From an uncultured Clostridium sp. (GTDB lineage: Bacteria > Bacillota_I > Bacilli_A > RF39 > UBA660), in the NCBI GenBank assembly GCA_946414595.1, contig CAMKPE010000008.1, positions 1,152 to 65,151 of the forward strand: a DNA stretch of 64,000 nt, read 5' to 3'. This document shows positions 23,055 through 42,980 of the stretch, piece after piece. The translations under genes were made by a program, and so were the position numbers. Position 1 is the stretch's first letter; each line of letters starts with the position of its first letter. Below the pieces are notes generated by a model that did not search any database, was not told the DNA's origin, and was given only the letters and a program-made list of their open reading frames with translations.

Positions 23055-26000
23055 TTATTTAATAATAATATATTTATAAACCTCTCCAATATATGTATTG
23101 TTGTCATATAGGGAGAATACAATCTTGTAAGTACCTGATCTTAAGTTGTCTTTTAAATATAATACCTGTGACATAGTAGCTTGTGGATCATCGAATACTA
23201 AGTATAATTTTTCTACATTTGTATCACTAAAATTATTAGTAAAGAAATCTTTAAAGTCTACTAAGTGATATATACTTGAATATACTTCATCGTAGTCTCT
23301 TCTATATAGAGATACTCTGATATTTGGATTTAATAATCCACTTGAGAATTGGAAGTTAAATGCCATTGCATTAGTACCATTTTGTGTTTCTCCAGTTGTT
23401 TTATCCACAATTAAGTCTTCCGAATCAACGACTGCTTTTAATCCATAAATAGTGTTTTTAACTGTAAATGGAATTGTAACGCTATCAGATGATGTTAACC
23501 CATAATAGATTCCATCTGGAGATCCAAATGACTCGATTAACATCTTATAATTTCCTGATGCTAAGTTACTTCCTTCAGTGTTAATTGTGATGTTTGATGA
23601 TACGTTTGCAATACGTTCTGCAACGTTAATTCTTACCGTTCCATCAAATCTAGGATAATATGTTGTATTACCAAGAGTATAGGAAATTCCCATTATACTT
23701 GGACCATTTACAACGTTATCATTAGAGTCTAGGATTGATATTTTAATACCTGATCTATAATCATAGAAGTTTGTATCTATAACTGGGTTATTATTAACTT
23801 TTTGTTGAACGAAGTTTGTCGTAACATTTAACATTACTTCTTCTCCTATGTATACTTCATCAGTCGACATCGTTCCATCAACATCAATAATTGAATCTTT
23901 ATTAGCGTATAAGTTATAGAACAATTGCTGTTGCTGGACACCAATTACCGATAGAATTATTTCATCATCAGAACTTCGAAGCTCTAACAACAAGTATTTT
24001 TCTATGGCATCTTCTTCTATACCTGCTTCTTTAAAGTCTACAATGAAGATAAACTCTTCTTCTGCAATACCGAGGTCATCATCGTAATATAACAGGTTCT
24101 TCGTTGCATCATTATAATGGTTATTTGGATTATCACTACCCATTTTAATGAATTTAGAAAGTGGATATGCGACATCTCCATTAGCTTGTAATTCTGCTTG
24201 TTTATTTACAAAGTCATCATGAGTTACAACATAGTAATAATATTCAGGAGTTGTTCCACTTAATAAGTCAATCATTGTAATCTTTGTATTTTCTGGGAAG
24301 TTATAAGTAGATGCTAGAACTCTATGATATCCTTCTCTATAAATTGTTTCATCTTTTTCTACGAATAATGAATAGTATGTTGTAAAGGCACTCTTTGAAG
24401 TTATATTAACTACACCTGGTGCAAACATTTCATATACTTTTCCGGTTGTAATTGTTCCTTCATAGTCATCTGTCGTATATAACGCTCTTGATATATTAAC
24501 ATTAATATTAATTCTTTTTACTTCGTTATTTAAATCATCAATTGGAATAATTGCTACCATTGAAATGGTTGCAGTTCCCATGCTTCCAGCTGTCTCCAAA
24601 TTCTTAGAGTGGTATAGATAGAATAACAGTGTTGGAACTGTATTTGAGTTTTCACTCTTATAATTAATTGTTCCATCAAAGTAAGATTCATTAGTTAAGA
24701 ATGTTGTCTTACCTATTGTTAACCATCCATTATCACTACTCTTCATTACAAGAGCCATTCTATTATCAGCAAGTTCATGAGTCTCAGCAATTCTTGGTAT
24801 TTCATCTTTTCCAACAAGTTCAACTTCACTATTTAAGTCATTATAGTTGAATCCTAAAACAGAGAACGTTGTATTAGCTTGTGAGAAGTTAATTAATGGT
24901 AACTCATAAGTTCCAAGTGTAGAATATTTAGATGCTGTTAAATCTATTTCTATAGAAGTAACTTGATCTCCAACAACCCACATATAATAGTTAGAATCTT
25001 CTGGTGTTGGAATTATGTATCCAACAAATATTTTATCTGTCTCAGTTTTATTTGGATAATTTGTATAGAATCCATCTTCTTCATAATTATGGTTTGTTTT
25101 ATGAAGTCCTAGTACATAACTACCTTTAGTAAAGTGTACTATTTCTGAAGATGGTACTGTAGTAGTATTTGTATAGTCTGTATTATACATAGCTGGATAT
25201 ACTTTACCATTTCTATCATAAGTAAACATTCCAAAGAATGTCATTCCACTAACTTCTCCGTATGCTGTTATGTTTTCGTTTGTTGCTATGTTAATATTCT
25301 TTCCTTCATAAACATATAATTTGTTATTAACGTTTCTTGATTGTATTCCATCTTCATCTATTTCTACTGCTTCTTTAACAACAGTATTTCCAGTTTTTAA
25401 TCCACTAGAGAATTTCTTAACTAAGTTAGTACCGTTCTTTAAGTATATAACTGAGTTATTAACTAATGCGATTTCATCCAATCTACTTAATGAGAACAAT
25501 ACATCAGAGTATTCGTTTGTTCTGTCTGTTGCTCCAATAAGTTCGATTACTGAATTCTCAAGAGTTACTGTAGATGCTCTTTGAATTGATACATTTGTTT
25601 TGTAATTTGCTTCAGTTCCATAGTTTTTAATTAAGATGTTACTATAACCACTTGTACTTGAAGCATTACCACTTCCAAATATAGATCCGTGTATATCAAA
25701 TACATTATGGCTATTAGCATCTATATTAATTGTTATTCCTGTCGTAACACTTATGAATGAGAAGTCATAAATTTCTGATCCTGAAGCATTGGCTTCTCCT
25801 CCACCAAATACTGTTCCAGTAATATCAATATCACCTTTTGTTAATGTATTTTCTGTTACTACATCCTTACCAATATTTACATTTACTGTTCCGTAAAGTA
25901 CTGAAGTATTAGCTCCTCCATATACATTACCTCCACAAGTAAGTCCTGCAATATTTACTAAACTTGTTGAGTTATTAGCCTCAGGTGTTCCTGTTGCAGC

Positions 26001-29000
26001 GGCATTTCCTCCACCAAATACGTGGTTTGCAACTGACGTTGTTCCACCAACATTTAATACTGTATTTCCATGTACTATGGCAGTAGTTCCGTTTCCTCCT
26101 GCAAATAAGTTTGCTCCTAAAGTACTATTTTGAACAAATACATCTGTATCATGTCCAACTATTCCTAGGTTTCCTCCACCGAAGACATTTCCACTTATTG
26201 TCGCATTAACAATTCTTAATACTGAATTATTATCAACTGCAGCTTGGTTTCCTCCTCCATAGACTTGACCATTAATAATTGCATTTTCAATATTTGTATT
26301 TGTTCCTGTTGTATCAGCGTAGTTTCCTCCACCATAGACATAAGTTACTTGCCCTGCTTTTAGATCTACGTTAGCGCTTATTGTTCTTCCTCCACGGTTA
26401 TTACCACCGAATATTTTATTAACAATTACACTGCTGTTATTTGCTGGTATACTTACATGGCTTTCTTGAACTGCTCCAGCCATATTAGATCCACCATAAA
26501 CATTTGTAATTCTTGATACACCTTTTAAAATTACATTTGCAGTATCTACAGAAGCTTGGTTTCCTCCACCATAGATATTAGAAATTGTAGATGCTGTTTT
26601 ATTAATTGTTACATTACTTGTTGTAGAGTCAGCATAATTTCCTCCTCCATAAATATCTGTAACATTTCCATCATTTACAGTGACATGAGTTGTTGTTGTA
26701 GTTCCACCTTGATTATTACCACCATAAATATTTGTAGTTGTTCCTCCTGCTACTATGATATTAGAAACAGGAACTGTACCACTTTGATTTGATCCTCCAT
26801 AAATTGAACCAACTGTGGCATTATTTTGATTAACACTCGTACTTACTGTTATTCCGGCTTCATTTCCTCCACCATAAACATCAGTTATATTTCCACTATT
26901 TAAGTTAATTATTGTTGTGTCTGTTTCTGCAACATTTCCTCCACCAAAGATAGTAGCAATTGTTCCTCCACCTGTTGTTATCTTTGTTGTATTAGTTTTT
27001 CCACCTAAGTTGTTACCACCATAGATTGTTGTGGCATTACCACTTGATGTTGTTATATTAGATTCTACAACTGTACCACTTTGATTTGATCCACCAAATA
27101 TCGTTGTTACAGTTGATCCCTGTAATGTTACATTTGTTTTATTTGTAATACCTGCTTGGTTTCCTCCACCATATACATTTGCAATAGTTGCACCATTTAA
27201 AGTAAGGTTTGTTGTATCTGTTTCTGCAACATTTCCTCCACCATAAATAGTATCTATATTTCCACCATTTATAGTTAAGTTTGAAGTTAGAGTTTTACCT
27301 CCTAAATTATTTCCTCCATAGATATTTGTTGCAGTTCCGCTTGATGTTGTTATGTATGATGCTGTAACATTTCCTGAGTTATTACTTCCTCCAAAAAGGT
27401 TTGTTACTGTTGCACCATTTAATATTGTATTAGTACTTGATGTAACACCTGCTTGGTTTCCTCCTGCATAAGCATTTGGAATTGTTCCTCCATTTAGGTA
27501 TAAATGTGTAGTTCCAGTTGTTGCAACATTTCCTCCACCATAAACAGCGCTCAATGTTCCACCTGTTATTGTTACATTAGAAGTTGTTGTTGTTCCTCCT
27601 AAGTTATTACCACCATATATAGTTGTAGCAGAGCCACTGCTTGAAGTTACATTTGCTGTTGTAACTGTACCACTTTCATTAGAACCACCATATATTGTAG
27701 TAGCATTAGCTCCTTGTAAATGAACATTAGTAGTTGTAGCATTAGCAAGGTTTCCTCCACCATAAACATTAGTTATAGTACCGCCATTTAAATATACATG
27801 GCTTGTATTTATTGGTGCATAATTTCCTCCACCAAATACATTGGTAGTATTTCCACCATTTATATAAACATTTATATTTCCATTTGGAGTTCCCTTAACA
27901 TCATTTCCTCCAAATACATCATTAATAGTTCCATTATTAACTGTTACAGTTACGTTTCCTCTAACATATGGAGTTGTTGAATTATCACCTTGTCCTCCAC
28001 CAAAAACAGAACCAGATATACTACCATTATTAATTGTTATAGAAGTATTACCACTAGCACTACCATTTGATGAATTGCTGTTAACAATTCCTAAAGCACT
28101 TCCTCCATAAATATTTCCTTGAATAATTGGAGTATTAGTAATACCATTTCTACCTATAGTTATATCAATATTATTAGATACAAATGTTGGAGCACCTTTA
28201 CCTCCACCATAAACGTTTCCAGTAATTGTACCACCAATAATATCCATATCAACTGATCCATACACTTCACCTGTAGTATTAGATCCTCCGTAGACATTTC
28301 CAATTGTTCCACCACTTATATCAATATCAATTACACTGCTTGATTTATATTCATTTTTACTAAATCCTGCTGATTTAGATCCACCATATACATTGCCTAT
28401 TGTTCCACTTAATATTTCTATTTTAGCAGTTGATGATTGTGTAGTTTGTGTTCCTGTACTACCAAAGTTTCCTCCACCATATACACCATCAGTTATAGTT
28501 GCTCCATTGATAATTACATGTGAATTTTTAACAGATCCTCTTGTTGGATATCCATCAGCACCTCCACCAGCTCCAAATACAGAACCAGCTTCAACATCAT
28601 TTATAGAACCTGTTTGATCACCAACTACTGCAGTACCTCCAACATATACAATGGTATCTCCATCTATAATACCTATATTATTTCCTGTTCCTCCATTACT
28701 ATTTGATCCACCTAAAACACTATAGTGGATAACTCCTCCAGAAATATTAATAATTCTATTTCCGTATGTTGTATTTTGAGTAGCTCCTCCATAAATCTGC
28801 CTTACGTCTCCCCCACTCATACCAATATAAACCGCATTTGCTCCATTGTTATTATTATATCTATAACCAGATCCCCCAAGAATTATGTTAATTGAACCAC
28901 CTTCAATTTTAATTCCATTAGTTGCATGTGTAGTAACTGAAGTACCTCTTCCGCTTATGTAAGCTCCAGCACCATCAGGATCATTACTTGGTGTACCATC

Positions 29001-30989
29001 AGGGTTATATCCGTACATTCCACTTTTAAATGTTACAAATATTCCATAAATATCTGCAGTACCTGCATTTATAGCACCATTTCTTCCCGTTAAGTATCCT
29101 AGGAAGAATTTCAATTTAGAATTATCATTCATTGCTCTATCATAGTCACTACCCAAGATTATTGTTTCATTAACAGTTGCAGTACCACTATTATAAGTAC
29201 CATAGTAACCATTATAGAAACCACTTTCGACAATTACTCTAAAGTGTCCATTTAATCCACCATAAATAGTATGCGCTACCATGTTAGCACTATTAGATCC
29301 ATTCGATACATTTCTTCCGATTTTTAAATTGTGTGTATTTGCATTTATATAAGGGCTTTGCCCAATTTGACCAAAGTCATTATTACTAGTTCCTGCATTA
29401 GCTCCAGTAAAATGAATATTTTCTATTACTAAATCATTTTGAAGTGTTAAGTTACCAGTTATACTAATTGATCCAGTAATATTTGTTCCTGTTTCTGAAA
29501 CACCTGTTACTGTATATGGTTTATTTTGTGCTAAGTTAGATGCAGTTAAATTAGTTGTACTTGTATATCTAAATATATTCAAATCTCTTGTTACTAGATA
29601 ATAATATCTATCCTGGTCTACAATATTATTATTAGCTTCTTCAAGAGTATATATAGAATGACCATTAGAGTTATTAACACTATCTTGATATTCAATTAAT
29701 TTATATGCTGTTCTACAGTTATTAGCGTTAGTACATACTGAACCATCACTATTGTAGTATTCACCTGTATTAACCATTGTAGTTGTTGGGTTACTTACTT
29801 GATAGAAGAATCCTCCTGTAACATCCCCTACTTCTAAGTCAAATACATAATGTGTTATTGGTACAGACATTTGATATGATCCATTTGGATCTTCAACAAG
29901 GTCCATATATGTAGCATTATAAGCATTAATTGTTGTTGATGTATTATTTCCTCTAGAGCTAAAATTAGGTACAAATTCAAATGATCCACCAGTATATTCA
30001 CTTCCGCCAACTATACCAGAAGTATTTGCAGTATATGCATAACAAGTCCTGTTATTTCCACATCTTGTATAGTTATTATAACGAACATAAGTATAGGAAT
30101 TACTATTTATGTTAGTTTTGTACCAAATACCCGCAGGCATATATCCATCACTACGCACATAAGTACGAGTATATACCATTGTTGTATAATTTTGTTTCCA
30201 TACTGCTTTTGCAGGATGGTTTTCATATGTAATTATAGTACGCTGTACTGGTTGCATACCCATACTATTGAATGTACTAATATTAGAGTATGATGTAACA
30301 ACATCTGCTCTATACCAACTAGCATTTAAATGAATTGTAAATTCATCTTGTCCATCGCATTCTATATCCATATATCTTGTGTAATTATCTTTTGTAAAAT
30401 ACATTTTAGTATTATTACATACACCACTTGTAGTATCTTCATTTGAATTACATACCCATCCGTTAAAACCATATTCTACTCCATCTACATATGGTCTTTT
30501 ACTAAACAAGTTATCAGGTAATTCTATTCTTATATAATGATGTCCATTACTATTAGTTGCAAGTGTTCCATTAGCATTTCTTTCTAATGCATAATATTTA
30601 TAATAAATATATTTATTAACATTCTCACTACTTAATGGAGAAACATATCCAACTAGTGATGAATCATTAATATCTTTACCATCATAAATTACTCTTACTT
30701 TTACTAAATATTCATCGTTATAATATCCAGTATTAGTAGAACTTGGAATTATATTTTGATTAAATATTTTCGTATAATTTAGTCCTTTAAAATAGTTATA
30801 ATCACTAGCTAAATCATTTATATGCATTGTAGTATCAACTTTTCCAGATACTGGAGCATCAAACGTTGATACAAATTCTCCATAAGTGAAGAACGTAGTT
30901 AATCCAAAACAAAAAAGAAGAAAAGAAAGAGCTGCAAAAATTATTCTTTTTGTTTTAATTTTTATGATCTTCTTTTTCTTCTTTTTCAT
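23055..30989 (-). CDS. Giant secreted or surface protein (2644 aa) with a long parallel-beta-helix-like (V/I)(Y/F)GG(G/S)N repeat array
   Basis: The N-terminus is K-rich, then hydrophobic, ending ..GLTTFFTYGEFVSTF (TasA/SipW-type signal-like). Dozens of ~24-25-aa units containing YGGGN / YGGSN / YGGNN lie between ~25650 and ~29550. The ~850-aa C-terminal region is non-repetitive. There is no LPXTG motif and no C-terminal TM segment. Confidence 0.85.
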   Translation of the reverse strand: MKKKKKKIIKIKTKRIIFAALSFLLFCFGLTTFFTYGEFVSTFDAPVSGKVDTTMHINDLASDYNYFKGLNYTKIFNQNIIPSSTNTGYYNDEYLVKVRVIYDGKDINDSSLVGYVSPLSSENVNKYIYYKYYALERNANGTLATNSNGHHYIRIELPDNLFSKRPYVDGVEYGFNGWVCNSNEDTTSGVCNNTKMYFTKDNYTRYMDIECDGQDEFTIHLNASWYRADVVTSYSNISTFNSMGMQPVQRTIITYENHPAKAVWKQNYTTMVYTRTYVRSDGYMPAGIWYKTNINSNSYTYVRYNNYTRCGNNRTCYAYTANTSGIVGGSEYTGGSFEFVPNFSSRGNNTSTTINAYNATYMDLVEDPNGSYQMSVPITHYVFDLEVGDVTGGFFYQVSNPTTTMVNTGEYYNSDGSVCTNANNCRTAYKLIEYQDSVNNSNGHSIYTLEEANNNIVDQDRYYYLVTRDLNIFRYTSTTNLTASNLAQNKPYTVTGVSETGTNITGSISITGNLTLQNDLVIENIHFTGANAGTSNNDFGQIGQSPYINANTHNLKIGRNVSNGSNSANMVAHTIYGGLNGHFRVIVESGFYNGYYGTYNSGTATVNETIILGSDYDRAMNDNSKLKFFLGYLTGRNGAINAGTADIYGIFVTFKSGMYGYNPDGTPSNDPDGAGAYISGRGTSVTTHATNGIKIEGGSINIILGGSGYRYNNNNGANAVYIGMSGGDVRQIYGGATQNTTYGNRIINISGGVIHYSVLGGSNSNGGTGNNIGIIDGDTIVYVGGTAVVGDQTGSINDVEAGSVFGAGGGADGYPTRGSVKNSHVIINGATITDGVYGGGNFGSTGTQTTQSSTAKIEILSGTIGNVYGGSKSAGFSKNEYKSSSVIDIDISGGTIGNVYGGSNTTGEVYGSVDMDIIGGTITGNVYGGGKGAPTFVSNNIDITIGRNGITNTPIIQGNIYGGSALGIVNSNSSNGSASGNTSITINNGSISGSVFGGGQGDNSTTPYVRGNVTVTVNNGTINDVFGGNDVKGTPNGNINVYINGGNTTNVFGGGNYAPINTSHVYLNGGTITNVYGGGNLANATTTNVHLQGANATTIYGGSNESGTVTTANVTSSSGSATTIYGGNNLGGTTTTSNVTITGGTLSAVYGGGNVATTGTTHLYLNGGTIPNAYAGGNQAGVTSSTNTILNGATVTNLFGGSNNSGNVTASYITTSSGTATNIYGGNNLGGKTLTSNLTINGGNIDTIYGGGNVAETDTTNLTLNGATIANVYGGGNQAGITNKTNVTLQGSTVTTIFGGSNQSGTVVESNITTSSGNATTIYGGNNLGGKTNTTKITTGGGTIATIFGGGNVAETDTTIINLNSGNITDVYGGGNEAGITVSTSVNQNNATVGSIYGGSNQSGTVPVSNIIVAGGTTTNIYGGNNQGGTTTTTHVTVNDGNVTDIYGGGNYADSTTSNVTINKTASTISNIYGGGNQASVDTANVILKGVSRITNVYGGSNMAGAVQESHVSIPANNSSVIVNKIFGGNNRGGRTISANVDLKAGQVTYVYGGGNYADTTGTNTNIENAIINGQVYGGGNQAAVDNNSVLRIVNATISGNVFGGGNLGIVGHDTDVFVQNSTLGANLFAGGNGTTAIVHGNTVLNVGGTTSVANHVFGGGNAAATGTPEANNSTSLVNIAGLTCGGNVYGGANTSVLYGTVNVNIGKDVVTENTLTKGDIDITGTVFGGGEANASGSEIYDFSFISVTTGITINIDANSHNVFDIHGSIFGSGNASSTSGYSNILIKNYGTEANYKTNVSIQRASTVTLENSVIELIGATDRTNEYSDVLFSLSRLDEIALVNNSVIYLKNGTNLVKKFSSGLKTGNTVVKEAVEIDEDGIQSRNVNNKLYVYEGKNINIATNENITAYGEVSGMTFFGMFTYDRNGKVYPAMYNTDYTNTTTVPSSEIVHFTKGSYVLGLHKTNHNYEEDGFYTNYPNKTETDKIFVGYIIPTPEDSNYYMWVVGDQVTSIEIDLTASKYSTLGTYELPLINFSQANTTFSVLGFNYNDLNSEVELVGKDEIPRIAETHELADNRMALVMKSSDNGWLTIGKTTFLTNESYFDGTINYKSENSNTVPTLLFYLYHSKNLETAGSMGTATISMVAIIPIDDLNNEVKRININVNISRALYTTDDYEGTITTGKVYEMFAPGVVNITSKSAFTTYYSLFVEKDETIYREGYHRVLASTYNFPENTKITMIDLLSGTTPEYYYYVVTHDDFVNKQAELQANGDVAYPLSKFIKMGSDNPNNHYNDATKNLLYYDDDLGIAEEEFIFIVDFKEAGIEEDAIEKYLLLELRSSDDEIILSVIGVQQQQLFYNLYANKDSIIDVDGTMSTDEVYIGEEVMLNVTTNFVQQKVNNNPVIDTNFYDYRSGIKISILDSNDNVVNGPSIMGISYTLGNTTYYPRFDGTVRINVAERIANVSSNITINTEGSNLASGNYKMLIESFGSPDGIYYGLTSSDSVTIPFTVKNTIYGLKAVVDSEDLIVDKTTGETQNGTNAMAFNFQFSSGLLNPNIRVSLYRRDYDEVYSSIYHLVDFKDFFTNNFSDTNVEKLYLVFDDPQATMSQVLYLKDNLRSGTYKIVFSLYDNNTYIGEVYKYIIIK
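26480..27665 (-). repeat. Four tandem ~297-bp (99-aa) higher-order repeats within the giant gene
   Basis: Each unit is four coils, e.g. V..S.ITTSSG.AT.IYGGNNLGG / ....S..TI.GG.....YGGGNVA. / TDTT.L.LNG..I..VYGGGNQAG / IT..TNV.LQG.TVT..FGGSNQSG. The units are recognisably repeated at the DNA level. Confidence 0.8.
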
Positions 30990-34139: not shown

Positions 34140-34766
34140 TTACTCCTTATTTTCTTCTTTAACCTCTTCTATTTCTTCTTTTACTTCTTCTTGAACTTCA
34201 GGTATTTTAACCTCTTCTTGTAGTTTTTCAGGTTCTTTTACCTTTTCTTTTTTTGGTTCATTTTTCTCAAGAACAATATCTCTAATATCTAAGAATATTA
34301 ATATTGAGAATGGTACGAATACCATAATATAGAACATTACGCTGTTGTTCATTAATTTACTAAAAGCACTTAAAACACCTAATTTAGTTATTACCTTTCC
34401 TTGTACTTGATTATAAGTAATTGCAGGATCTTCAAAATCATTAGCGTCTCCTTTTGTATGAATTTCATTATCAATTCTTATAACTCTATGGGTTACTATC
34501 TTTCCTGCAAAGTCATCTACTTCTCCTTGATAAACAATATTATCGCCTACTTTAATATCGTCTTTAGATACTTCCTTAGCAAGAAGCATATCCCCTATTT
34601 CATACTCTGGTTCCATTGATCCAGTTAATACTGTATAAACACCATAACCGAACATTCTAGCTTTGTTTCCAGAGAATTTTTGTACTAATACTACTATTAA
34701 AATTAATACTACTAGAATAGTTAATAAAACTTTTAATGATTTTAAAAATATTTTTAATGCTTTCAT
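34140..34766 (-). CDS. sipW: Signal peptidase I, SipW (archaeal/ER S26B) type, with a K/E-rich C-terminal tail
   Basis: N-terminal TM, catalytic-Ser motif LTGSMEPEYEIGD, His motif IVTHRVIRI, Asp motif TKGDANDFED, a C-terminal TM segment, and then EKNEPKKEKVKEPEKLQEE... Confidence 0.85.
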   Translation of the reverse strand: MKALKIFLKSLKVLLTILVVLILIVVLVQKFSGNKARMFGYGVYTVLTGSMEPEYEIGDMLLAKEVSKDDIKVGDNIVYQGEVDDFAGKIVTHRVIRIDNEIHTKGDANDFEDPAITYNQVQGKVITKLGVLSAFSKLMNNSVMFYIMVFVPFSILIFLDIRDIVLEKNEPKKEKVKEPEKLQEEVKIPEVQEEVKEEIEEVKEENKE

Positions 34767-34773: not shown

Positions 34774-35961
34774 CTATTCTAAGTTTAATGAATCAAATCT
34801 TTCAACATATTGTTTTATTGCCATCTTAAACTTATCATGTATTTCCTTGTCGTTAACAACATTTTTATATTTTACAACTGTATAATACTTATCAATTAAA
34901 TCAAGTATTTCTTTCTTATCAATAGCATTCATTTCAATTAATTTTTGAAGCATACTATTAACAATCTTTTTAGATACTTCTTTCTTTCTACTATCTGTTT
35001 TTCTTGATGATCCATTAGCATATAAATTAAGTACTAAATAGTTAAGTAAGAAAATTTCATCTTGATAATCTTTAGGTTTACCTTCTACTTTTTCATTTTT
35101 TGTTTCTTTAACATTTTTAGTTTCTGTATTCATATGCTCTTGCATATAATTCCATAATTTTAATGCATATTGGAAGTTTGTATTTTTAAGTATTACATTT
35201 GTCTTTTTAATTGGTGAAGTAACTAGTGTTATATGTAATTTTTGTATTGTTTTATATGTTTCTGATCCAGTTAAATCAGTAACTTTATTTTCTAATTTTT
35301 CTATACGTTCTAGTACTTTACCAATACTATTTTCATCTTGAGAATCCTCTTCTAGATTACTATCTAATACGATATTCATACTGTATTTTGTGTTACCTAG
35401 TTTTGTTGATGCATTATATTTTAATTTCTTATTATCTTTTGCACAAGTAACACCTTCAAGAGCTTTTTTCTTGAAGTTTATGTATGCTCTCATATTCTGA
35501 ATTAAGCTGTAGATAAACCTATTTTCATAAGTATCATAGCTCTCTTCTTTGTTGATATTTAAAATCTTAGAGGGTTTAACTTCTCCTGTTTTTTTATCAA
35601 ATTTTTGTATTAAGTTAGTATTTCTTGAAAGGTGCTTAATACTTTCTACAGTAACACGTCTTGCAAGTTCTACTTTAACTATATCTTCTTCATTTATTAT
35701 GAATCTATTAGGGTTTCTTAAGATATTATCGATGTACCTAACTGTGTCTTCCATTATGGTTAACCATTCTGTTGAAAACTCTGTTTTATCGTAGTCTATA
35801 TCTATGTCTAAACTAGATATAATACCATTATTGAATTCTTCAATTGTTTCATTTGAATGTTCATTATACAAATCTGTTATTTGAAGTTCTCCGACATTAG
35901 TATCATCAGTTTCAACTAGTTCTGATACTTCAGTATCTTCAGTTTCAACAACTTCATCCAT
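34774..35961 (-). CDS. McrC N-terminal / DUF2357-like protein without a recognisable nuclease domain (395 aa)
   Basis: Acidic N-terminus, then ILRNPNRFIINEEDIVKVELARRVTVESIKHL...SYDTYENRFIYSLIQNM, which resembles the McrC/DUF2357 core (E. coli McrC NEDTLANRIIKSTL, from memory). It lies directly downstream of the McrB-like gene. I saw no canonical PD-(D/E)xK motif. Confidence 0.6.
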   Translation of the reverse strand: MDEVVETEDTEVSELVETDDTNVGELQITDLYNEHSNETIEEFNNGIISSLDIDIDYDKTEFSTEWLTIMEDTVRYIDNILRNPNRFIINEEDIVKVELARRVTVESIKHLSRNTNLIQKFDKKTGEVKPSKILNINKEESYDTYENRFIYSLIQNMRAYINFKKKALEGVTCAKDNKKLKYNASTKLGNTKYSMNIVLDSNLEEDSQDENSIGKVLERIEKLENKVTDLTGSETYKTIQKLHITLVTSPIKKTNVILKNTNFQYALKLWNYMQEHMNTETKNVKETKNEKVEGKPKDYQDEIFLLNYLVLNLYANGSSRKTDSRKKEVSKKIVNSMLQKLIEMNAIDKKEILDLIDKYYTVVKYKNVVNDKEIHDKFKMAIKQYVERFDSLNLE

Positions 35962-36000: not shown

Positions 36001-37524
36001 TTAAGTAAGTTTCTTAAGTCTTAATACATATTCAATACATTCTTTCATTTTATCTTTACCAAATGTATTGTCCAAAAACTCTACGAATCCATCAATTTCA
36101 TCTCTTATGTAAGAGATATTTAATTGTTCAAATTTTCTTAAGATCTTCTTAGCAATGAAATAATCTACTCCTTCAATTTCATCTCCGCCACAGGCAACAT
36201 ATACTGGTACGAATTTCTTTAAGTGAGAAACGATACGGTTACCAAATGCGATACGGAAATGTTGTATTACATAGTTATCCATTTCTTCGATTTTATTAAG
36301 TGTATCTTCTGATACAGGATTCTTTTCCATTGCATCTTTAAATAGACTGTTGATATAACTAAAGTTAATATCTTGTGCAGGTATTTCTTCAGGTGTAAAT
36401 ACCTCACCTTTTTCATTGATATCTATTGGCATAGCACGGTCGTAAACTTTATCTGTAACCATAAATGTTGAGTCGTCGTTATTGATTGTACCTATGTACC
36501 ATACATTCTCTGGTATTTTAAGTTTTCCACCTATAACATGTTTTGGATCGTTCTTCCAAGAGGATGCAACTAATTCTACTATCCACTCATCGTGGTTAGG
36601 CATTTCTAGGATTGATAACATTTCTGCAAAGTAATACTCAACACGGGAGATATTCATCTCGTCCAAGATTACTGTATAAACGTCATCTGTATATCCAGCT
36701 ATATATAATTCTTTTAATACTTCTGTTTCATTAAACTTTTTAGTAAACTCGTTGAAGTAACCAAAAAGCTCTGTTCTATCACGCCATGATGGTTGTACTG
36801 ATGCGATACATGAGTCATGCTTTAAGAATTTTCCCCAAGCATAAGCAAGTGATGTTTTACCTGTTCCTGAAATACCTTGTAATATAACAAGTTTTGTTGA
36901 TGCAAGAGCAGATATAAATAATCTAATCATCTGTGGTCTATAGTAAAGTCTTAACTGCGATGCAGCGAAGTTTCTAAAGTTACTGCATAATTCTTCAAGA
37001 GTAAATGAATTACCATAGTTTTGTATTTTGTAGTTAGCATATTCTTGGTCAATATCAAATAACTTAGAGAATCTTGGTGCTTCAGTTGGTCCATTATCTT
37101 CTTGATTTTCACTTACATCTTCAGTATCTGGTTCATTAGGTTTGATACCTAAATGTGATACTTTCATTGCAAGTATTTCTTCACGTTCTTTTACAAGTGT
37201 TGCAACTTTGTTATTAAGTTCTCCAACTTCTTCAAGAAGTGATTCTTGATCTACTAAAGTCTTTCTAAATCTTAATAATCTTCTTGCTGCTAAGTATACT
37301 AGTAAACATAGTACAAAGATTAATGCTAAGACTACAATTATAGCAAGTACAACAAGTATCCATTCACCTACTGTAAAATCATCTTTATAGTCATTAATAA
37401 CTGCAATATATTCTTTAATATTGAATATCTTTGCTACTCCATTTACTATTCCCATTACTATTTCTAAAAGTCCTGAAAATAATTGTGAAAGAAATTCATA
37501 CAAAAATTTTAAAAACGTATCCAT
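36001..37524 (-). CDS. Membrane-tethered McrB-family AAA+ (GTPase-type) protein (507 aa)
   Basis: Two N-terminal hydrophobic segments followed by RRLLRFRK (positive-inside) and a coiled coil. Walker A is LQGISGTGKT. VILDEMNISRVEYYFAEMLSILE and IPENVWYIGTINNDDSTFMVTDKVYDRAM parallel McrB DEINRANLSKVFGE and [16 protein letters not shown]..RRRF (from memory). Confidence 0.8.
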   Translation of the reverse strand: MDTFLKFLYEFLSQLFSGLLEIVMGIVNGVAKIFNIKEYIAVINDYKDDFTVGEWILVVLAIIVVLALIFVLCLLVYLAARRLLRFRKTLVDQESLLEEVGELNNKVATLVKEREEILAMKVSHLGIKPNEPDTEDVSENQEDNGPTEAPRFSKLFDIDQEYANYKIQNYGNSFTLEELCSNFRNFAASQLRLYYRPQMIRLFISALASTKLVILQGISGTGKTSLAYAWGKFLKHDSCIASVQPSWRDRTELFGYFNEFTKKFNETEVLKELYIAGYTDDVYTVILDEMNISRVEYYFAEMLSILEMPNHDEWIVELVASSWKNDPKHVIGGKLKIPENVWYIGTINNDDSTFMVTDKVYDRAMPIDINEKGEVFTPEEIPAQDINFSYINSLFKDAMEKNPVSEDTLNKIEEMDNYVIQHFRIAFGNRIVSHLKKFVPVYVACGGDEIEGVDYFIAKKILRKFEQLNISYIRDEIDGFVEFLDNTFGKDKMKECIEYVLRLKKLT

Positions 37525-37534: not shown

Positions 37535-38509
37535 CTATTCATTAATAACAATAATCTTCTTATTCTTTTCTTTTAAGAACTTAGAGTTATTATCTACAAT
37601 TATGTAGCTAAACATCTCAAATAAGATGAAATCATTCTTATCTATATCATCATTTACTTTGACTGCAAACATATATCCATCTCTAATCATGTTTTTAATA
37701 TCATTACCATATTTAGTATAATCTTCATATTTTATCTTAAATATAGTTTGGCCTTTAAAACAGTCATCACTAGAAATCTCTAATAGTTTTGCTAGTCTTT
37801 CTTTATCTTCAAATAAAGAAGTTGCAAAGTCAATTAAGTAGAATCTATCAAATACACACCCACGTATATCGTTAATTATCATACTAGTTAGTAAGTAGTA
37901 TTCTACTAATAATTTATCTTCATTAATAACTCCTTCATGGAATACTCTATCTATTGCAAATTCACTATATAATCTAGGAAATTTAATGTTATATTTTAGT
38001 TCAACATCTACTAAGTTATCTTTAGATGTTGTATATTTCTTTATCTCAAAATCACTTGTCTTGAAGTAATCAAAGAACTTCTTTCTTTTATCTTCAATAT
38101 TTTTTAATAGTTTAGTTATTTCTTCTCTAAACAATGTTACATCATCAAGATTATAAAGGTTTCTATGATATTCTGATACTAATCTTACTAGTGTTTTATA
38201 TGTTATTGTTTTAACTCCATCAAGGCATAATACATAGTTGAATACAGTAAACATTTCTATTAATCTGTCTTTAACTGATTCATCTTCACCTTCACTTAGT
38301 TTCATTACAGCTTTTCTTAAGTGATTGAATATCCTTTCTTCGAAAGGTGTAGCTTCATCACTATAAAAGTTGTAATATCTATTTTCCATATAAATATCTA
38401 ATAGTTTACTAAAGGCTTCTTCTTCATAATAATCAGTAGATAGAACTTGTTTAGCGAATAATGTAATATTATTCTTTTCGAAGTCTATATACTCCTTTAG
38501 CATATTCAT
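37535..38509 (-). CDS. Hypothetical cytoplasmic protein (324 aa); C-terminal half possibly a degenerate EAL-like fold
   Basis: From the ORF track. No TM segment. It is tightly packed with its neighbours (10-11 nt gaps). The EAL resemblance is weak: FYLIDFATSLF, IFKIKYED, DGYMFAVKVNDDI, FSYIIVD. Confidence 0.55.
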   Translation of the reverse strand: MNMLKEYIDFEKNNITLFAKQVLSTDYYEEEAFSKLLDIYMENRYYNFYSDEATPFEERIFNHLRKAVMKLSEGEDESVKDRLIEMFTVFNYVLCLDGVKTITYKTLVRLVSEYHRNLYNLDDVTLFREEITKLLKNIEDKRKKFFDYFKTSDFEIKKYTTSKDNLVDVELKYNIKFPRLYSEFAIDRVFHEGVINEDKLLVEYYLLTSMIINDIRGCVFDRFYLIDFATSLFEDKERLAKLLEISSDDCFKGQTIFKIKYEDYTKYGNDIKNMIRDGYMFAVKVNDDIDKNDFILFEMFSYIIVDNNSKFLKEKNKKIIVINE

Positions 38510-38520: not shown

Positions 38521-39447
38521 CTATTCACTTGAGAATGTAATAATTGGTGTATTTGTTTCAAACGGATAAGTATAATCGTTATTCGTATGTAACTTATAAA
38601 ATCTTACAGATGTACTTGATAAAGCATCTGTACCAAATGTTACACTGTTGATGTAATCAAATCCATCGCTCATTGTTGTTGTCGTTGTTCTTTTAGCTTG
38701 TAGATATGCCTCACTAGTATTATCTAATCTAAATAAGTTTGGATCGAATGTTAATGTAATTAATGCTGATGTACAATGAGTTTTGTTTTCAGGGGATAAC
38801 GCTAAATACTCTCTTATTTCCATCCTATCACCTACACTATAATCACCAAAGGCTTCAATTACTTCGTAGTAATCTAGTGTATTAGTAATATTAAAGTCCA
38901 AATAAGGGCTTCCCATTGAATCAACTATTTCATATGATAGCCCAATCTCACCAACGTTGATTGTAAACTTACCACTTAGTGTTTTTGTATAAGGGCTTGT
39001 TGCACTTGTTTCTACTTCAAGCCATATAGAGTCTCCATCTCCTAACTGTACTGTTGGAGTCATAGTAATAGTAAAATAATCAGTATTAGAACCATTCATG
39101 ATTAAACCAGTGTCTTTAGATGCTGTACAAGAAACATTAGTTGAACATTCATAGCTAATCGTGTAACTAATATTGTCACTTGATGCTACAATATTATTTT
39201 TTTTGCTATTCATATTAATCGTAATTGTTACTGGTTCAACTCCTGACCAGTTATCAAGTTGGTAATATGATTCATCTTCTGATAACTTATCACTATTAAA
39301 GTAAAAGTTTTTAGTACTTAAATAATAATTTCTAAGTCCACGATATATATATCTACCATATGTACCAATTAGAAAGACACCTGTTAAAAGAGCAACAATT
39401 ATAATTATATTTTTGTTGTTTAGCTTCTTCTTTCTACTCTTTTTCAT
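38521..39447 (-). CDS. Exported protein with a SipW-type-like signal (308 aa)
   Basis: The K-rich N-terminus and hydrophobic segment end ..GVFLIGTYGRYIY. The mature part is beta-rich and S/T-rich. RBS GTGGAGAG lies upstream. Confidence 0.7.
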   Translation of the reverse strand: MKKSRKKKLNNKNIIIIVALLTGVFLIGTYGRYIYRGLRNYYLSTKNFYFNSDKLSEDESYYQLDNWSGVEPVTITINMNSKKNNIVASSDNISYTISYECSTNVSCTASKDTGLIMNGSNTDYFTITMTPTVQLGDGDSIWLEVETSATSPYTKTLSGKFTINVGEIGLSYEIVDSMGSPYLDFNITNTLDYYEVIEAFGDYSVGDRMEIREYLALSPENKTHCTSALITLTFDPNLFRLDNTSEAYLQAKRTTTTTMSDGFDYINSVTFGTDALSSTSVRFYKLHTNNDYTYPFETNTPIITFSSE

Positions 39448-39544: not shown

Positions 39545-40576
39545 TTATTCACTTAATGTTGTAATTACTAAATCGTAAGTAATTGTTCCTCCTGATGCAT
39601 TGTTTTCACAGTCAACATCTTGACCTTCAACCCACATGTATACTCTTACTTTAGTTATACCAGCTTGTAGAGTAAATAATTGTAAGTTAGAAGCAAATCC
39701 TGCACCTGCTTTAGTTGAATGAGTTACAGTAACAGATCCAAATAATGATCCAAAGTCAGTTACATAATCAAGTGGATCTTCAACTTGAACTAATACGTTA
39801 TTTGTTGTAGTTATATCAGCTTTAACTCCTGCATAAGCAATTTGTGAACCACCAGTTTGTGAAGTTGTTACACCATATGTATCACGTGCGTGTGATACAG
39901 CTGCTGCTGTATGAACATCATAGTTTGGTTCCCAAATATATTTAGTAATTGCTGCAGCTTCATCGTTATCCAAATCTAATCCCATGTTTTGAATGTTTTG
40001 AACTGTATCTCCGGCATCAGCATTTCCAAGCATTACAAATCCAATTCTTGAAGCATTCTTGATACCTGTATCAGTATCATCTGTAGTTTTAACGCCAGAG
40101 TTAGTTGATAGATATACTGTTGTAGGAGCTGTTACTTTAAAGAATAAATCGAAAGCTATAAACTTACCAGAAGTTCCGCTAACTTCAGTGTCTCTCTCAG
40201 CAGTTAAAATATAATTTCCGCCAGCATTACTTGTTATTTGTCCATAGTACATTTTCATCTTACCAGTGTTATCAATTTCACCAATAGTAGATACTGGTTC
40301 CATAGTGTCTGGTAATTGGTTAACGCTATTTCCATAAGTAGTAGATGCTCCAGTTATATCTGCTTCTTGAACTATAGACTTCCAGTTAGTTCCATCAACA
40401 GAAATTTGTATACCGTTTTTAGCTTCTACATTAACAGTTAATGTATTAACTTTAACAGTTTGGTTTGCTGTAAACCATGCATAAGTTGTTGTTGTAAACA
40501 TTACAGTTGTGAAAAACAACGCTATTAAAAGTATTAATAATCTTCTCTTACGATTCCTTTTTCTTCTTTTCTCCAT
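39545..40576 (-). CDS. SipW-type-signal exported protein, putative major subunit (343 aa), paralogue of 31004-32011
   Basis: The start is moved to MEKRRKRNRKRR (ATG 40576), which has GGAGGG 7 nt upstream. The signal ends ..FTTTTYAWFTAN. It shares blocks with the paralogue (see 31004). It has its own promoter and terminator. Confidence 0.85.
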   Translation of the reverse strand: MEKRRKRNRKRRLLILLIALFFTTVMFTTTTYAWFTANQTVKVNTLTVNVEAKNGIQISVDGTNWKSIVQEADITGASTTYGNSVNQLPDTMEPVSTIGEIDNTGKMKMYYGQITSNAGGNYILTAERDTEVSGTSGKFIAFDLFFKVTAPTTVYLSTNSGVKTTDDTDTGIKNASRIGFVMLGNADAGDTVQNIQNMGLDLDNDEAAAITKYIWEPNYDVHTAAAVSHARDTYGVTTSQTGGSQIAYAGVKADITTTNNVLVQVEDPLDYVTDFGSLFGSVTVTHSTKAGAGFASNLQLFTLQAGITKVRVYMWVEGQDVDCENNASGGTITYDLVITTLSE

Positions 40577-40661: not shown

Positions 40662-40714
40662 TAGTTTTTGTAAACTTTTACACAAAATTGTCACAATATG
40701 TGTAAACTTGTCGA

Positions 40715-41845
40715 TTATTCGTCTGTATCTAGCTTTTGCTTTGCATTTACTGATATTTCTATATTTTCGGCAACATCTTGGTAATTATGTGAAGTATATC
40801 CACTTCCAAAGGTAATTGTCAATTTGTAATAATCTGTATAATCATTATTGTAATTTAATGGCCTACTTGACGTTTTAATTATTTTGAAATATGTACCATC
40901 ATCATCACTAATAATTTCTTCTTCTCCTATTATAGGTAGATCTACTCCACCATTAGTAAGATAGAATTCATAACCAAGTGGCAAGTTAGTAGTGGCTTTT
41001 ATCTCTACATAATAGTCCATATTAACTTCTGATCTATGTTCTCCATCTGTATTAGAAACACTGAATGTATATGAATATGTATCTCCAGGTTTCATATTAG
41101 TAAGATTTATCTCATCGTGTGTATACGTATCTTTTGCTAAAAAGAATGCTATATCAACAGGAGCTGCAGCTCTTGTTTCTGTTCTCAATCTAGAAAAAGT
41201 ATATGGTATTAAGAATGTTAATAATGCTAATAAGATAACAAATATACATATTTCAATTTTAAGTCTATTATTGTGTTTTAACTTCTCTATCATTTCTCTT
41301 CTTCTTTCAACATTATCTTCTTTTATTTCTCTTACTTGTTTTTCTTCTTTTATCTTTAGCATCCTTATTGTATATAACATAAGTATCATTGTTATAAAGC
41401 ATGCTATCATAATCTTTGGTGTAGTAAGTACTTTTATCCATACTCCTACTTTAGAAAAAGTTCTAACAACTTTACCTATAACCATATCTTTATTTATAGG
41501 TTTATCTATTGTGTTATTAGCATCTCCTCTTGTTATATAAGTATCACCTTTTATTTCAGTGATTCTGTGGGTTATTATCGCACCATTACTTTTGAATGAT
41601 ATAACATCCCCTACTTTGTAGTCATCATCAATTTTAACTAAGATTACATCGTATTTGTCAATTGTTGGTGACATACTACCACTTATTACTTCAAATACTG
41701 TATAACCAAATACATTAGAATAATCTTGTTTTAATACTTTAACTGAAAAAAAGTTATATACAGCAAGTAACATAGGTAATAGCATCATTATACTAAGTAT
41801 TGTTGTAATAACTCTTCTTGTTATTTTTAATATTCTATTTTTCAT
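40715..41845 (-). CDS. SipW-type signal peptidase fused to a C-terminal TasA-like exported domain (376 aa)
   Basis: Residues 1-~165 form a peptidase: TM, ISGSMSPTIDKYD, IITHRITEI, TRGDANNTID, second TM. A KE-rich linker follows, then a third hydrophobic segment ending ..LIPYTFSRLRTETRAAAP. The C-terminal domain carries INLTNMKPGDTYSYTFSVSNTDG (cf. TasA VNLSNLKPGDKLTKDFQFENNG, from memory). There is an ATGA overlap with the upstream gene. Confidence 0.8.
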   Translation of the reverse strand: MKNRILKITRRVITTILSIMMLLPMLLAVYNFFSVKVLKQDYSNVFGYTVFEVISGSMSPTIDKYDVILVKIDDDYKVGDVISFKSNGAIITHRITEIKGDTYITRGDANNTIDKPINKDMVIGKVVRTFSKVGVWIKVLTTPKIMIACFITMILMLYTIRMLKIKEEKQVREIKEDNVERRREMIEKLKHNNRLKIEICIFVILLALLTFLIPYTFSRLRTETRAAAPVDIAFFLAKDTYTHDEINLTNMKPGDTYSYTFSVSNTDGEHRSEVNMDYYVEIKATTNLPLGYEFYLTNGGVDLPIIGEEEIISDDDGTYFKIIKTSSRPLNYNNDYTDYYKLTITFGSGYTSHNYQDVAENIEISVNAKQKLDTDE

Positions 41846-42453
41846 GGTGTAATCTCCTCTATACTAGTCAAAGTATCACCATCCATATATTGTAGAATTT
41901 CAACTGTTATTGGTATATCTATACTATTATTGTATACTTTACCTAAATCAGAGTCTTTTTCATTATTATTCTCATCATTAACCCAACTTAAGTATACTCT
42001 TATCGTGTTAGTTTCATTATCTTCGATATCTTCTAATGTAATTATATTACTATATGTAAATGTACCCGTATGTACTATTGGTTTATCATCTATTTCTTTT
42101 ATTTCTTCAATTACAAATTGGTCTTCATCTAAATTAGAGAAATCAAATGTTACATTATAGATAATTGATACATCTGTATCATTTGGATCAATTTCTATAT
42201 CAAAGTACCCAGTCATTCCTGGCGCTACTTTTCCTTCTTTAACATTTGCTGATGAATTCCAATTAATACTATCAACTGTAAAAGTTGATTCGCTTCCATT
42301 TATACTATCATTATTAACTTTTACTTGCCATTTAGCTATATCAATCTGACTTGTATTAGTTCTTTCACTTTCAAACAATCCATACGATCCTATTAAAAGA
42401 TATATTCCTATTAAGAAAAAGAATGGTGCTAAGACCATTATATGTTTTTTCAT
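41842..42453 (-). CDS. Small TasA-like exported protein (203 aa), paralogue of 32910-33488
   Basis: The signal ends ..LLIGSYGLFESE. The blocks shared with the plus-strand paralogue are listed there. It has 4-nt overlaps with both neighbours. Confidence 0.75.
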   Translation of the reverse strand: MKKHIMVLAPFFFLIGIYLLIGSYGLFESERTNTSQIDIAKWQVKVNNDSINGSESTFTVDSINWNSSANVKEGKVAPGMTGYFDIEIDPNDTDVSIIYNVTFDFSNLDEDQFVIEEIKEIDDKPIVHTGTFTYSNIITLEDIEDNETNTIRVYLSWVNDENNNEKDSDLGKVYNNSIDIPITVEILQYMDGDTLTSIEEITP

Positions 42454-42980
42454 TCTTTATTTTTAATTTCTTTATAGATTGCGTATATTTCGTATATGAA
42501 AGCCAAGAATAATGGAAATACAACTATAAATAAGAATCCCCATTTAGATTGTAATACATAAAGTAATTGTCCTAAGAAATGGAATGCTGTTGTAGATTCA
42601 TGTGTACCTAAAACATATTCGCTTGATACTGATGTATTATCTTTTAAATGGAATGTTGTTTCTTTATCACTTATTTTTTCTTTTCTTACAACTTCTACGT
42701 ATCTAATACGATTTCCTGCAGGAATATCATAGAAGAATACTTTTTGTCCGGTTTCAACATCATCGTTTGATACTGGCTTAATAAATAAAAGCGTATTATT
42801 TTCATAATCTTCTATTTGTTTTTCCCCATCTTCTCCTTCTTCAACAAGAACTAAATATCTTCCTGCAAATGAAGAAACTCCATAGTCATTTCTATTTAAT
42901 AAAAATGCTGTTGTAAATACTATTAGTATTAAATATATTGATACTACTATACTTAAAATAATTTTCAAAGTCTTATTCAT
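42450..42980 (-). CDS. SipW-like membrane protein lacking catalytic residues (pseudo-peptidase, 176 aa)
   Basis: It has the same N-TM / beta-core / C-TM layout and spacing as the two SipW proteins (e.g. DVETGQKVFFYD vs DIKVGDNIVYQG). The Ser, His and Asp motifs are replaced: LVEEGEDG for GSM(E/S)P, IRYVEVV for THR(V/I), LKDNTS for GDAN. It is the first gene of the locus. Confidence 0.6.
   Translation of the reverse strand: MNKTLKIILSIVVSIYLILIVFTTAFLLNRNDYGVSSFAGRYLVLVEEGEDGEKQIEDYENNTLLFIKPVSNDDVETGQKVFFYDIPAGNRIRYVEVVRKEKISDKETTFHLKDNTSVSSEYVLGTHESTTAFHFLGQLLYVLQSKWGFLFIVVFPLFLAFIYEIYAIYKEIKNKE

Follow-up and report, generated by a model that had tools for sequence, protein, structure and literature searches.

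A 64,000-nucleotide stretch of DNA from an uncultured Clostridium sp. (assembly GCA_946414595.1, contig CAMKPE010000008.1, positions 1,152 to 65,151, hereafter the window) carries a 15-gene, 21.6-kb locus at 21341-42980, a minus-strand run with one inverted gene, which encodes SipW-type signal peptidases, a set of exported proteins that have one signal-end motif in common and a predicted membrane-anchored GTPase of the McrB family. The interpretation to which we incline, and which we regard as somewhat probable, is that the locus specifies a conserved, Sec- and SipW-processed multi-subunit surface filament whose assembly is coupled to this McrBC-derived GTPase. An earlier examination of the same DNA (the sequence-only reading) had described a ~20-kb locus at 23055-42980, and all of its open reading frames (ORFs) were recovered at the same places from the ORF list and translations of the window. 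The gene set was present as described, but the range was too short, as gene 21341-22873 is co-conserved and moves the end of the locus from 23055 out to 21341. The genes are as follows, with a slash marking the proposed cut in the signal end and the supporting evidence in brackets.

42450-42980, minus strand: pseudo-SipW with N- and C-terminal transmembrane (TM) segments (NF046067 E 8e-4; phmmer)
41842-42453, minus strand: small exported subunit, predicted jelly-roll, 203 amino acids (aa), signal end SYGLF (49 orthologues, paralogy, hhalign)
40715-41845, minus strand: active SipW-type peptidase fused to a small jelly-roll subunit (TIGR02228, TM segments, AlphaFold2 (AF2) model)
39545-40576, minus strand: major subunit paralogue A, 343 aa, signal end TTTYA/WFTAN (3151 homologues, AF2)
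38521-39447, minus strand: exported 308-aa protein of a separate family, signal end TYGRY (73 of 78 McrB-anchored loci)
37535-38509, minus strand: cytoplasmic 324-aa protein (76 of 78 loci; no TM segment and no Pfam match)
36001-37524, minus strand: predicted membrane-anchored McrB-family GTPase, 507 aa (PDB 6hz4 match, PRK11331, PDC-M26A)
34774-35961, minus strand: McrC-like partner (DUF2357), 395 aa (PF09823 E 6e-13)
34140-34766, minus strand: second active SipW-type signal peptidase (TIGR02228 82.5 bits, catalytic motifs)
33514-34137, minus strand: small exported subunit, predicted jelly-roll, 207 aa, signal end TTFA/WF (75 of 78 loci, hhalign)
32910-33488, plus strand: small exported subunit, predicted jelly-roll, 192 aa, signal end ETYA/KY (paralogue of 41842-42453)
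31995-32831, minus strand: 278-aa single-TM protein, candidate base subunit (hhalign to the major family, 57 of 78 loci)
31004-32017, minus strand: major subunit paralogue B, ~337 aa, signal end TTTYA/WFTSN (47% identity to A)
23055-30989, minus strand: giant exported 2644-aa protein, signal end TYGEF (translation, repeat count)
21341-22873, minus strand: charged, coiled-coil-like 510-aa cytoplasmic protein (51 of 79 loci, always adjoining the giant gene)

At least 230 species-level genomes have kept the gene set together. Scans of genome collections recovered 228 species genomes by the major subunit and 230 by the GTPase, and the carriers are all uncultured metagenome-assembled genomes (MAGs) from gut, rumen or faeces. 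Their labels (Bacilli, Tenericutes, Mycoplasma sp. CAG:877, Clostridium sp. CAG:609, CAG:914, CAG:628 and Firmicutes CAG:884) are taken here to correspond to RF39-like orders. The carrier genomes are ~1.3-1.9 Mb in size, and one complete chromosome, OZ006994.1, measures 1.26 Mb. The sequence-only reading had been staked beforehand on conservation of the neighbourhood in relatives, and this proved strong, with a fixed order around the GTPase. Among 78 GTPase-anchored loci, where counts are limited by contig ends, the GTPase gene was accompanied by the McrC-like gene in 78, SipW in 76, the 37535 family in 76, the 33514 family in 75, the 38521 family in 73, the pseudo-SipW in 66, the inverted small subunit in 65, the 31995 family in 57 and the giant gene in 55. 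The commonest order is pseudo-SipW, 38521, 37535, GTPase, McrC-like, SipW, 33514, 32910 (inverted), 31995, major subunit and giant.

A second sub-operon consists of the giant gene, 21341, pseudo-SipW, 41842, SipW, a small subunit and the major subunit, and at least three other genomes with both halves recovered have it at the opposite side of this locus. Since both halves form one locus in those genomes, the window holds the same gene set in a permuted order. In related loci the major subunit co-occurs with SipW, the giant and 21341, the last of these in 51 of 79. A candidate 'minimal' module devoid of the GTPase was rejected, as at least three such loci (CAKOIM010000001.1, CAKOHR010000001.1 and FR902145.1) were the other half of the same large locus, from which a 10-kb flank had cut them off. 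The L055-type architecture has no GTPase within its flanks. Contigs with the locus were also found in MAGs labelled Muribaculaceae, Bacteroidaceae, Paludibacteraceae, Lachnospiraceae, Oribacterium and Acidaminococcus fermentans (loci L006, L013, L020, L025, L036, L039, L047 and others). As their proteins are 50-75% identical to the Bacilli versions, these cases probably reflect mis-binning or mislabelling and not horizontal transfer.

Three SipW-like genes had been recognised earlier, two of them as intact and one as degenerate. Against the archaeal/endoplasmic reticulum-type signal peptidase I model TIGR02228 (curated cutoff 51.85 bits), 34140-34766 scored 82.5 bits and 40715-41845 scored 73.1 bits, so that both pass, while the equivalog model for Bacillus SipW, NF046067 (cutoff 190), gave sub-cutoff scores of 70 and 54 bits, respectively. 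Thus, the two enzymes are of SipW type (S26B) and are not orthologues of Bacillus SipW. The SGSM(E/S)P serine, THR histidine and GDAN aspartate motifs are intact in both proteins and in the orthologues of both, in agreement with the earlier description. The third gene, 42450-42980, is weakly SipW-like (NF046067 E 8e-4; phmmer to 34140-34766 E 1e-5) and is built like the active enzymes, a beta domain lying between TM segments at the N and C termini. Each of the three catalytic motifs has given way to other residues in it and in 25 of 25 aligned orthologues. Because orthologues are kept in both sets of related loci (54 of 79 in one, 66 of 78 in the other) and the motifs are replaced throughout the 25 orthologues, 42450-42980 is a conserved pseudo-enzyme. 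It is thus degenerate, as had been said, but not decaying, and its conservation rules out a pseudogene.

The other intact gene, 40715-41845, encodes the peptidase in residues 1-~180 and, in residues ~185-376, a subunit with its own signal-anchor and TFSRL site. TM segments are predicted at 12-30, 139-157 and 195-213, a fusion topology which would put the anchor of the subunit in an N-in/C-out orientation. A signal peptidase is fused in frame to one of its presumed substrates, and the topology would permit cleavage at TFS/RL in cis or in trans. Only the 7 closest genomes have this SipW::subunit fusion, most others having two separate genes.

A signal-end motif common to the exported proteins, which the sequence-only reading had pointed out by eye, was borne out by counting. 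In the whole window, the pattern T[YFW][AGS].[FYW] was found among the first 70 residues in six locus proteins and in one spurious ORF, out of a total of 11 matches in 21,856 aa of window ORFs, and its density at the locus is far above chance. Near-variants are SYGLF in 41842-42453 (orthologue consensus TYGLF) and the internal TFSRL in 40715-41845. Aligned orthologues of each family keep the motif better than any other N-terminal feature, and it lies where a signal of typical build, with basic and hydrophobic segments, has its outer end. Threonine at -3 and alanine, glycine or serine at -1 are compatible with a type I cleavage site, and the cut would probably fall after the small residue of T-aromatic-small/x-aromatic. 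The TasA family consensus, from a 50-sequence alignment built here, is GGGTWAAFND, and the likeness of T-aromatic-small-x-aromatic to GTWAAF is seen by eye and in hhalign registers. The profile for the SipW-cognate signal did not confirm this likeness. TIGR04088 gave 14.7 bits (E 0.025, cutoff 19) on major subunit A only, and no match on the other seven N-termini.

The small exported proteins could be related to one another with good statistical support. The 41842-42453 protein, for which 49 orthologues were found, and the 32910-33488 protein are paralogues (phmmer 1e-16). By hhalign, the family of the 40715 C-terminal domain (fusC) aligned with the 41842 family over its full length (95.8%, E 8e-9), and the 41842 family aligned with the 33514 family at 92.9%. 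The AF2 model of the fusC domain (pLDDT, the score of the predicted local distance difference test, 79) consists of a TM helix, a disordered linker and an all-beta domain, the low-confidence linker being residues 36-47, between the TM helix and the first strand. Foldseek matched this model to generic jelly-rolls, namely phiX174 G (1e-4), the ColG collagen-binding domain, Cry toxin chains and CBM6, and to the spore-appendage subunits Ena1C and Ena2A at ~1e-2. The jelly-roll is the fold class of the TasA, Ena, CanA and AbpA fibre subunits. These comparisons place the four ~190-aa families in one predicted jelly-roll superfamily. The small-subunit family amounts to 1500 clusters at 50% identity, is unannotated and is not in Pfam. 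PF21535 (HVO_2248) matched 33514-34137 weakly, and per-member Pfam scans of three small-subunit families gave scattered noise (PF21535 in 2 of 19 members, Peptidase_M73 in 1 of 52). A full-library hidden Markov model (HMM) search with the small-subunit profile returned close family members only in its top 150, with no bridge to annotated families, and single subunits and the family profiles A1, A2, A3 and A5 found nothing relevant among PDB sequences.

The plus-strand ORF 32910-33488, which had been listed among the exported proteins, is a real gene. A spurious antisense ORF was considered in its place and ruled out by the paralogy to 41842-42453 and by the inversion of the gene relative to the rest of the locus, which is strictly conserved (78 of 80 loci). 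A bidirectional terminator at 33487-33512 separates it from 33514-34137 on the minus strand, towards which it converges.

The two large paralogues noted earlier, A (39545-40576) and B (31004-32017), are 47% identical over 339 aa, and in the commonest gene order the giant gene follows the orthologues of B. The promoter and terminator that had been ascribed to 39545-40576 were both located. A promoter-like site, TTGATA-17-TG-TATACT, precedes the gene at 40661-40633, such matches as a class being not above chance in this AT-rich DNA, and a terminator with an 11-bp stem follows it at 39536-39512. Subunit A has 3151 homologues, none of them named. Its AF2 model is confident (pLDDT 88; predicted template-modelling score, pTM, 0.84), with a low-confidence linker at residues 29-38 between the TM helix and the first strand. 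The mature protein, 310 aa in length, has an unmatched fold, as its Foldseek hits had E values of at least 0.07 in PDB and at least 0.006 in BFVD, none passing a threshold of 0.001. An alignment with the small subunits was obtained in the signal region only. In the disordered stretch after the predicted cut (residues 29-38, window ~40463-40492) the major subunit has an invariant asparagine (W-F-T-A-N), and it has an invariant glutamate and a near-invariant lysine elsewhere, which recalls the N-E-K isopeptide 'exchange and lock' proposed for BsaA (PMC11580942).

Three further exported or membrane proteins complete the set. In 38521-39447 the motif is conserved in orthologues, and profile comparisons show no link with the other subunit families. 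The 31995-32831 protein has a single TM segment (41-59) and is devoid of the T-aromatic-small motif. Its family aligns with the major family over 37 residues (hhalign 84.7%, E 7e-6), and the two have in common a C-terminal W-x-EG-x-D-x-D-C module, which forms the last 37 residues of the major subunit. The missing cleavage motif suggests a membrane-retained paralogue. Pfam at E up to 1 gave no credible match for either protein. The giant, 23055-30989, has a TYGEF-ended signal, an N-terminal domain, ~31 repeats of ~25 residues ([YF]GG[GS]N, residues 837-1690) and a large C-terminal region. Its repeat region looks like a beta-solenoid, in keeping with the beta-helix protein of 2644 aa first proposed, and it carries the same signal motif as the smaller proteins. 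It was found in 49-55 related loci, a count limited by flank length, and Pfam gave no credible match to the protein, including four segments searched at E up to 1.

The sequence-only reading had taken the locus for an expanded TasA system. A SipW with cognate-looking substrates, many exported paralogues and the transcription signals of the major subunit all speak for this description, but TasA membership did not stand up. Peptidase_M73 (PF12389) gave one match, in 1 of 52 family members, at E 0.038 and 14.3 bits (cutoff 22.5) on the 40715 C-terminal domain, and none in the other subunit families. Against the TasA alignment (A6, 50 sequences from a fresh search), hhalign gave 2.0% for A5, 1.6% for A2, 23.6% for A3, 3.5% for A1, 6.9% for A4 and 0.7% for A8. 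Profile searches of PDB sequences did not return TasA, which with Foldseek also fell outside the top 50 for the fusC model, and AbpA appeared for the major subunit at E 0.65. Pfam, TIGR04088, hhalign (0.7-24%) and Foldseek were thus all unsupportive, which is essentially the outcome named beforehand as speaking against membership. A genuine TasA/camelysin operon, that is, a larger tapA-sipW-tasA with divergent Peptidase_M73 homologues, would nevertheless account for the SipW-type peptidases and for the parallel between the motif and GTWAAF. It would also explain why sub-threshold matches fall on the right segments, Peptidase_M73 exactly on NLTNMKPGDTYSYTFSVSN and both TIGR04088 and the TapA model TIGR04087 on the signal of major subunit A, and why hhalign registers align the signal motif, the PG strand and the terminal Q with TasA. 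Moreover, the BsaA/TasA superfamily, with 2,172 members found by iterative HMMs and with multi-paralogue operons, is much wider than Peptidase_M73 (PMC11580942), so that there may be a remote link. Given the low hhalign values, the absence of TasA from the PDB profile searches, the ranking of generic jelly-rolls first by Foldseek and a major subunit that aligns to the small ones in its signal region only, we consider such an operon rather unlikely. The subunits are accordingly described as jelly-roll proteins in a TasA-like context and not as members of the TasA family. A functional analogy to TasA appears reasonable in view of the dedicated SipW, the cognate motif and subunits of beta-sandwich type whose N-terminal extension would be free.

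The cytoplasmic and membrane components that had been noted as absent from tapA-sipW-tasA could be identified as an McrB-family GTPase and a DUF2357 protein. In 36001-37524 a TM segment (56-74) is followed by a conserved heptad-like stretch (~85-125, predicted coiled coil) and an AAA+ domain. Three motifs of this domain, Walker A (GISGTGKTS), Walker B (ILDEMN) and the signature (INNDDS), do not vary among 22 sequences. In PDB, E. coli McrB (6hz4) matched best, at E 2e-4 and with each of the three motifs aligned, and NCBIfam PRK11331 and PADLOC PDC-M26A (2e-34) also matched. Judged by these motifs and matches, 36001-37524 is a membrane-anchored McrB-family GTPase. The signature can be read as N-x-D with a second D after it, the form described for the NxD clade (PMC11090510), an alignment to NTAD without gaps being equally possible. 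The GTPase is the most conserved protein of the locus, with at least 70% identity in 80 species genomes. The neighbouring 34774-35961 protein matches PF09823 (DUF2357, McrC N-terminal; E 6e-13) and has a helical C-terminal half. Neither a further Pfam match, nor a nuclease domain, nor a D...(D/E)xK pattern in the conservation profile was detected in this protein. The gene for the 37535-38509 protein, which has no TM segment, is always immediately upstream of the GTPase gene, and 21341-22873 has no signal or TM segment. Neither of these two cytoplasmic proteins gave a credible Pfam match at E up to 1.

A class of systems called CoCoPALM was named by Bell et al. (2024, eLife 13:RP94800) in one paragraph, with the analysis deferred (PMC11090510). 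As described, a McrB GTPase of the NxD clade is joined there to an FtsB-like TM segment and coiled coil, and is linked to 'pilus assembly factors' of the signal-peptidase family (PMC11090510). The McrB-family GTPase and the DUF2357 protein place the present locus in this class, and in its gene content the locus matches a CoCoPALM-type system, a class named but uncharacterised. The predicted TM and coiled-coil segments of the GTPase, its NxD-type signature, the adjacent DUF2357 protein (78 of 78 loci) and the signal-peptidase genes in the operon, with SipW directly downstream of the gene for the McrC-like protein in 76 of 78 loci and the pseudo-SipW present in 66 of 78, are all points of agreement. 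FtsB homology was not reproduced, as Pfam at E up to 1 gave no DivIC/FtsB match on the N-terminus of the GTPase. In contrast to the locus described here, the account of CoCoPALM does not include exported substrates, a cleavage motif, a split into active and pseudo-peptidases, a giant protein or cytoplasmic partners (PMC11090510). The supplementary text files of that paper hold no CoCoPALM entries, and a literature search found no follow-up paper on CoCoPALM.

The same GTPase raises the question of defence. An McrBC-derived anti-phage or anti-plasmid system, with the exported proteins as effectors, sensors or a protective coat under GTPase control, would fit the match to the PADLOC candidate defence model PDC-M26A (2e-34), the HerA-type candidate defence gene 1.4 kb upstream in the window, and the CoCoNuTs, clade neighbours of the GTPase which are predicted defence systems (PMC11090510). 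However, the McrC-like partner has no detectable nuclease, and a GTPase at least 70% identical in 80 species with a fixed gene order follows the pattern of a vertically inherited core and not that of a patchy island. The locus also takes up ~1.5% of a roughly 1.3-Mb genome (e.g. OZ006994.1, 1.26 Mb), GC is ~29% and uniform across the locus and its surroundings, and no mobility genes were found among the flanking genes. We therefore regard a defence role as very unlikely. E. coli McrBC, a type IV restriction system (PDB 6hz4, 6ut6), has the same AAA+ GTPase Walker A and B motifs and Asn/Asp signature, and likewise a partner with the GTPase-activating McrC N-terminal domain. It differs in that TM and coiled-coil segments here replace the DNA-binding N-terminal domain, that no PD-(D/E)xK nuclease was detected in the partner, and that the GTPase/McrC-like pair sits inside an export and assembly operon.

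For the GTPase-coupled surface filament to which we incline, the following mechanism can be proposed. Its basis is what the sequence shows, namely the gene set with its conservation, what the peptidases are and which of them are catalytically intact, the common motif, the jelly-roll fold of one small subunit and the identity of the GTPase; the place of the cut, strand exchange, the part played by each subunit and any part of the GTPase are inferred from these. About nine proteins would be exported through Sec and remain membrane-bound through N-terminal signal-anchors. The two dedicated SipW-type (S26B) peptidases would then cut at T-aromatic-small/x-aromatic, mirroring GTWA/AFND in TasA, and release a flexible N-terminus of ~10 residues before the first beta-strand. 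The freed N-terminus would enter a neighbouring subunit, so that the fibre grows by donor-strand-type polymerisation of jelly-roll subunits. Both TasA and BsaA polymerise after SipW processing, and BsaA has been modelled as membrane-held until cleavage (PMC9674648, PMC11580942). The 340-aa protein may be the bulk subunit, the four ~190-aa jelly-roll paralogues minor or adaptor subunits, and the 2644-aa beta-solenoid protein a distal adhesin or spacer, while the 278-aa protein, with its uncleavable-looking anchor and the C-terminal module of the major subunit, could form the membrane base. The pseudo-SipW might act without catalysis, as chaperone or scaffold, in the way of SipA/LepA in streptococcal pili. 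On the cytoplasmic side, a hexameric McrB-family GTPase, tethered by its TM segment and coiled coil and activated by the nuclease-less McrC-like protein, would act with the two cytoplasmic proteins to gate, position or energise assembly. A more specific version, which we advance tentatively as a lesser possibility, holds that the McrBC module has been repurposed as the cytoplasmic motor or gate of a nucleoside triphosphate (NTP)-coupled pilus pathway, not recognised before, that depends on Sec and signal peptidase. The tethered GTPase ring would control delivery of signal-anchored subunits or their cleavage by SipW and pseudo-SipW, and the major pilin would represent a new fold family.

A product other than a filament is conceivable from the same parts. 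In a two-dimensional, S-layer-like coat or sheath, the 340-aa protein would tile the surface and the others would anchor and decorate it. The transcription signals of the major subunit fit high expression, a candidate membrane-retained paralogous base protein is at hand (31995-32831), and wall synthesis has been reported as eroding in some small-genome Bacilli lineages (PMC7301438). Against this, the sequence contains nothing that separates a lattice from a fibre, mraY and murG are kept in most RF39 genomes and the characterised SipW-dependent assemblies are fibres. We judge a coat to be distinctly unlikely.

Several observations weigh against the proposed filament. TasA homology has no statistical support, and since the major subunit has no structural neighbour, only its context speaks for a role in a fibre. 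Proteins exported by Sec are out of direct reach of a cytoplasmic GTPase, and to our knowledge the known SipW fibres need no nucleoside triphosphatase (NTPase). The relatives of the GTPase clade are predicted defence systems, no role could be assigned to 37535-38509 and 21341-22873, and the public copies of the locus proteins are all named 'hypothetical protein'.

The closest described fibre systems are B. subtilis tapA-sipW-tasA and C. perfringens sipW-bsaA-bsaB-bsaC. As in the present locus, the gene for an S26B SipW-type peptidase adjoins the substrate genes, the signal ends in T-aromatic-small-x-aromatic, and several paralogous beta-sandwich or jelly-roll subunits have a predicted flexible N-terminus after the cut. 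Those systems comprise 3-4 genes, whereas this locus has 15. Here the subunits are not demonstrably Peptidase_M73, the mature major subunit of 310 aa has an unmatched fold, two active peptidases are joined by a pseudo-peptidase, and a GTPase/McrC-like pair, two cytoplasmic proteins and a 2644-aa solenoid-like protein are added. The nearest precedent for the pseudo-SipW is S. pyogenes SipA/LepA, a catalytically inactive signal-peptidase homologue conserved inside a surface-fibre locus; a signal-peptidase-like protein is essential for polymerisation of the S. pyogenes pilus (PMC4049620). SipA belongs to sortase-dependent pili, whereas here no sortase was matched among the locus proteins, and reading of their translations, with no motif search run, revealed no C-terminal LPXTG signal. 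SipA is an S26A-type homologue, and the pseudo-SipW is derived from SipW/S26B.

The carriers, abundant uncultured gut and rumen Bacilli with small genomes, keep a predicted surface-assembly locus of 21 kb. For CoCoPALM, the analysis provides a parts list, made up of the substrates and their cleavage motif, the active peptidases and the pseudo-peptidase, candidates for a base and a giant tip, and the cytoplasmic partners. The major subunit belongs to a large family (>3000 sequences), unannotated and not in Pfam. Should the GTPase take part in assembly, the locus would represent the first NTPase-coupled, signal-peptidase-dependent fibre and a clear case of a restriction-system motor repurposed for envelope biogenesis. 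Were the NTP-coupled pathway true, uncultured small-genome gut Bacilli would have a class of surface filament specific to them, in addition to the type IV, sortase, chaperone-usher, type V, curli and TasA classes of bacteria.

The genes flanking the locus are housekeeping or unrelated genes, among them ffh, a HerA-like gene, EzrA, ABC transporters and a histidine kinase. The HerA-like ATPase (PADLOC HerA 3e-103), at 44398-47656 on the minus strand together with a 397-aa protein that comes after it and has weak ATPase or defence-model matches, forms a pair directly upstream of ffh, which may be a defence system and is syntenic in the closest genomes only. At 19851-20546 (minus strand) is a four-TM protein with a weak, sub-cutoff match to the Mycoplasma MAGa3780 family (E 2e-4), found in 0 of 79 loci. 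The 941-aa protein at 8096-10921 (minus strand) matches the ClpA/ClpB/ClpV AAA+ module in residues ~7-214 only, its remaining ~700 residues having no NCBIfam model match. At 4763-8083 (minus strand), a 1106-aa protein matches, above cutoff, the model for the N-terminal cleavage/methylation motif of prepilin type (TIGR02532), and it also has a Listeria-Bacteroides repeat (TIGR02543). It resembles a giant pseudopilin-like surface protein and suggests a second surface system in this organism, related to type IV pili.

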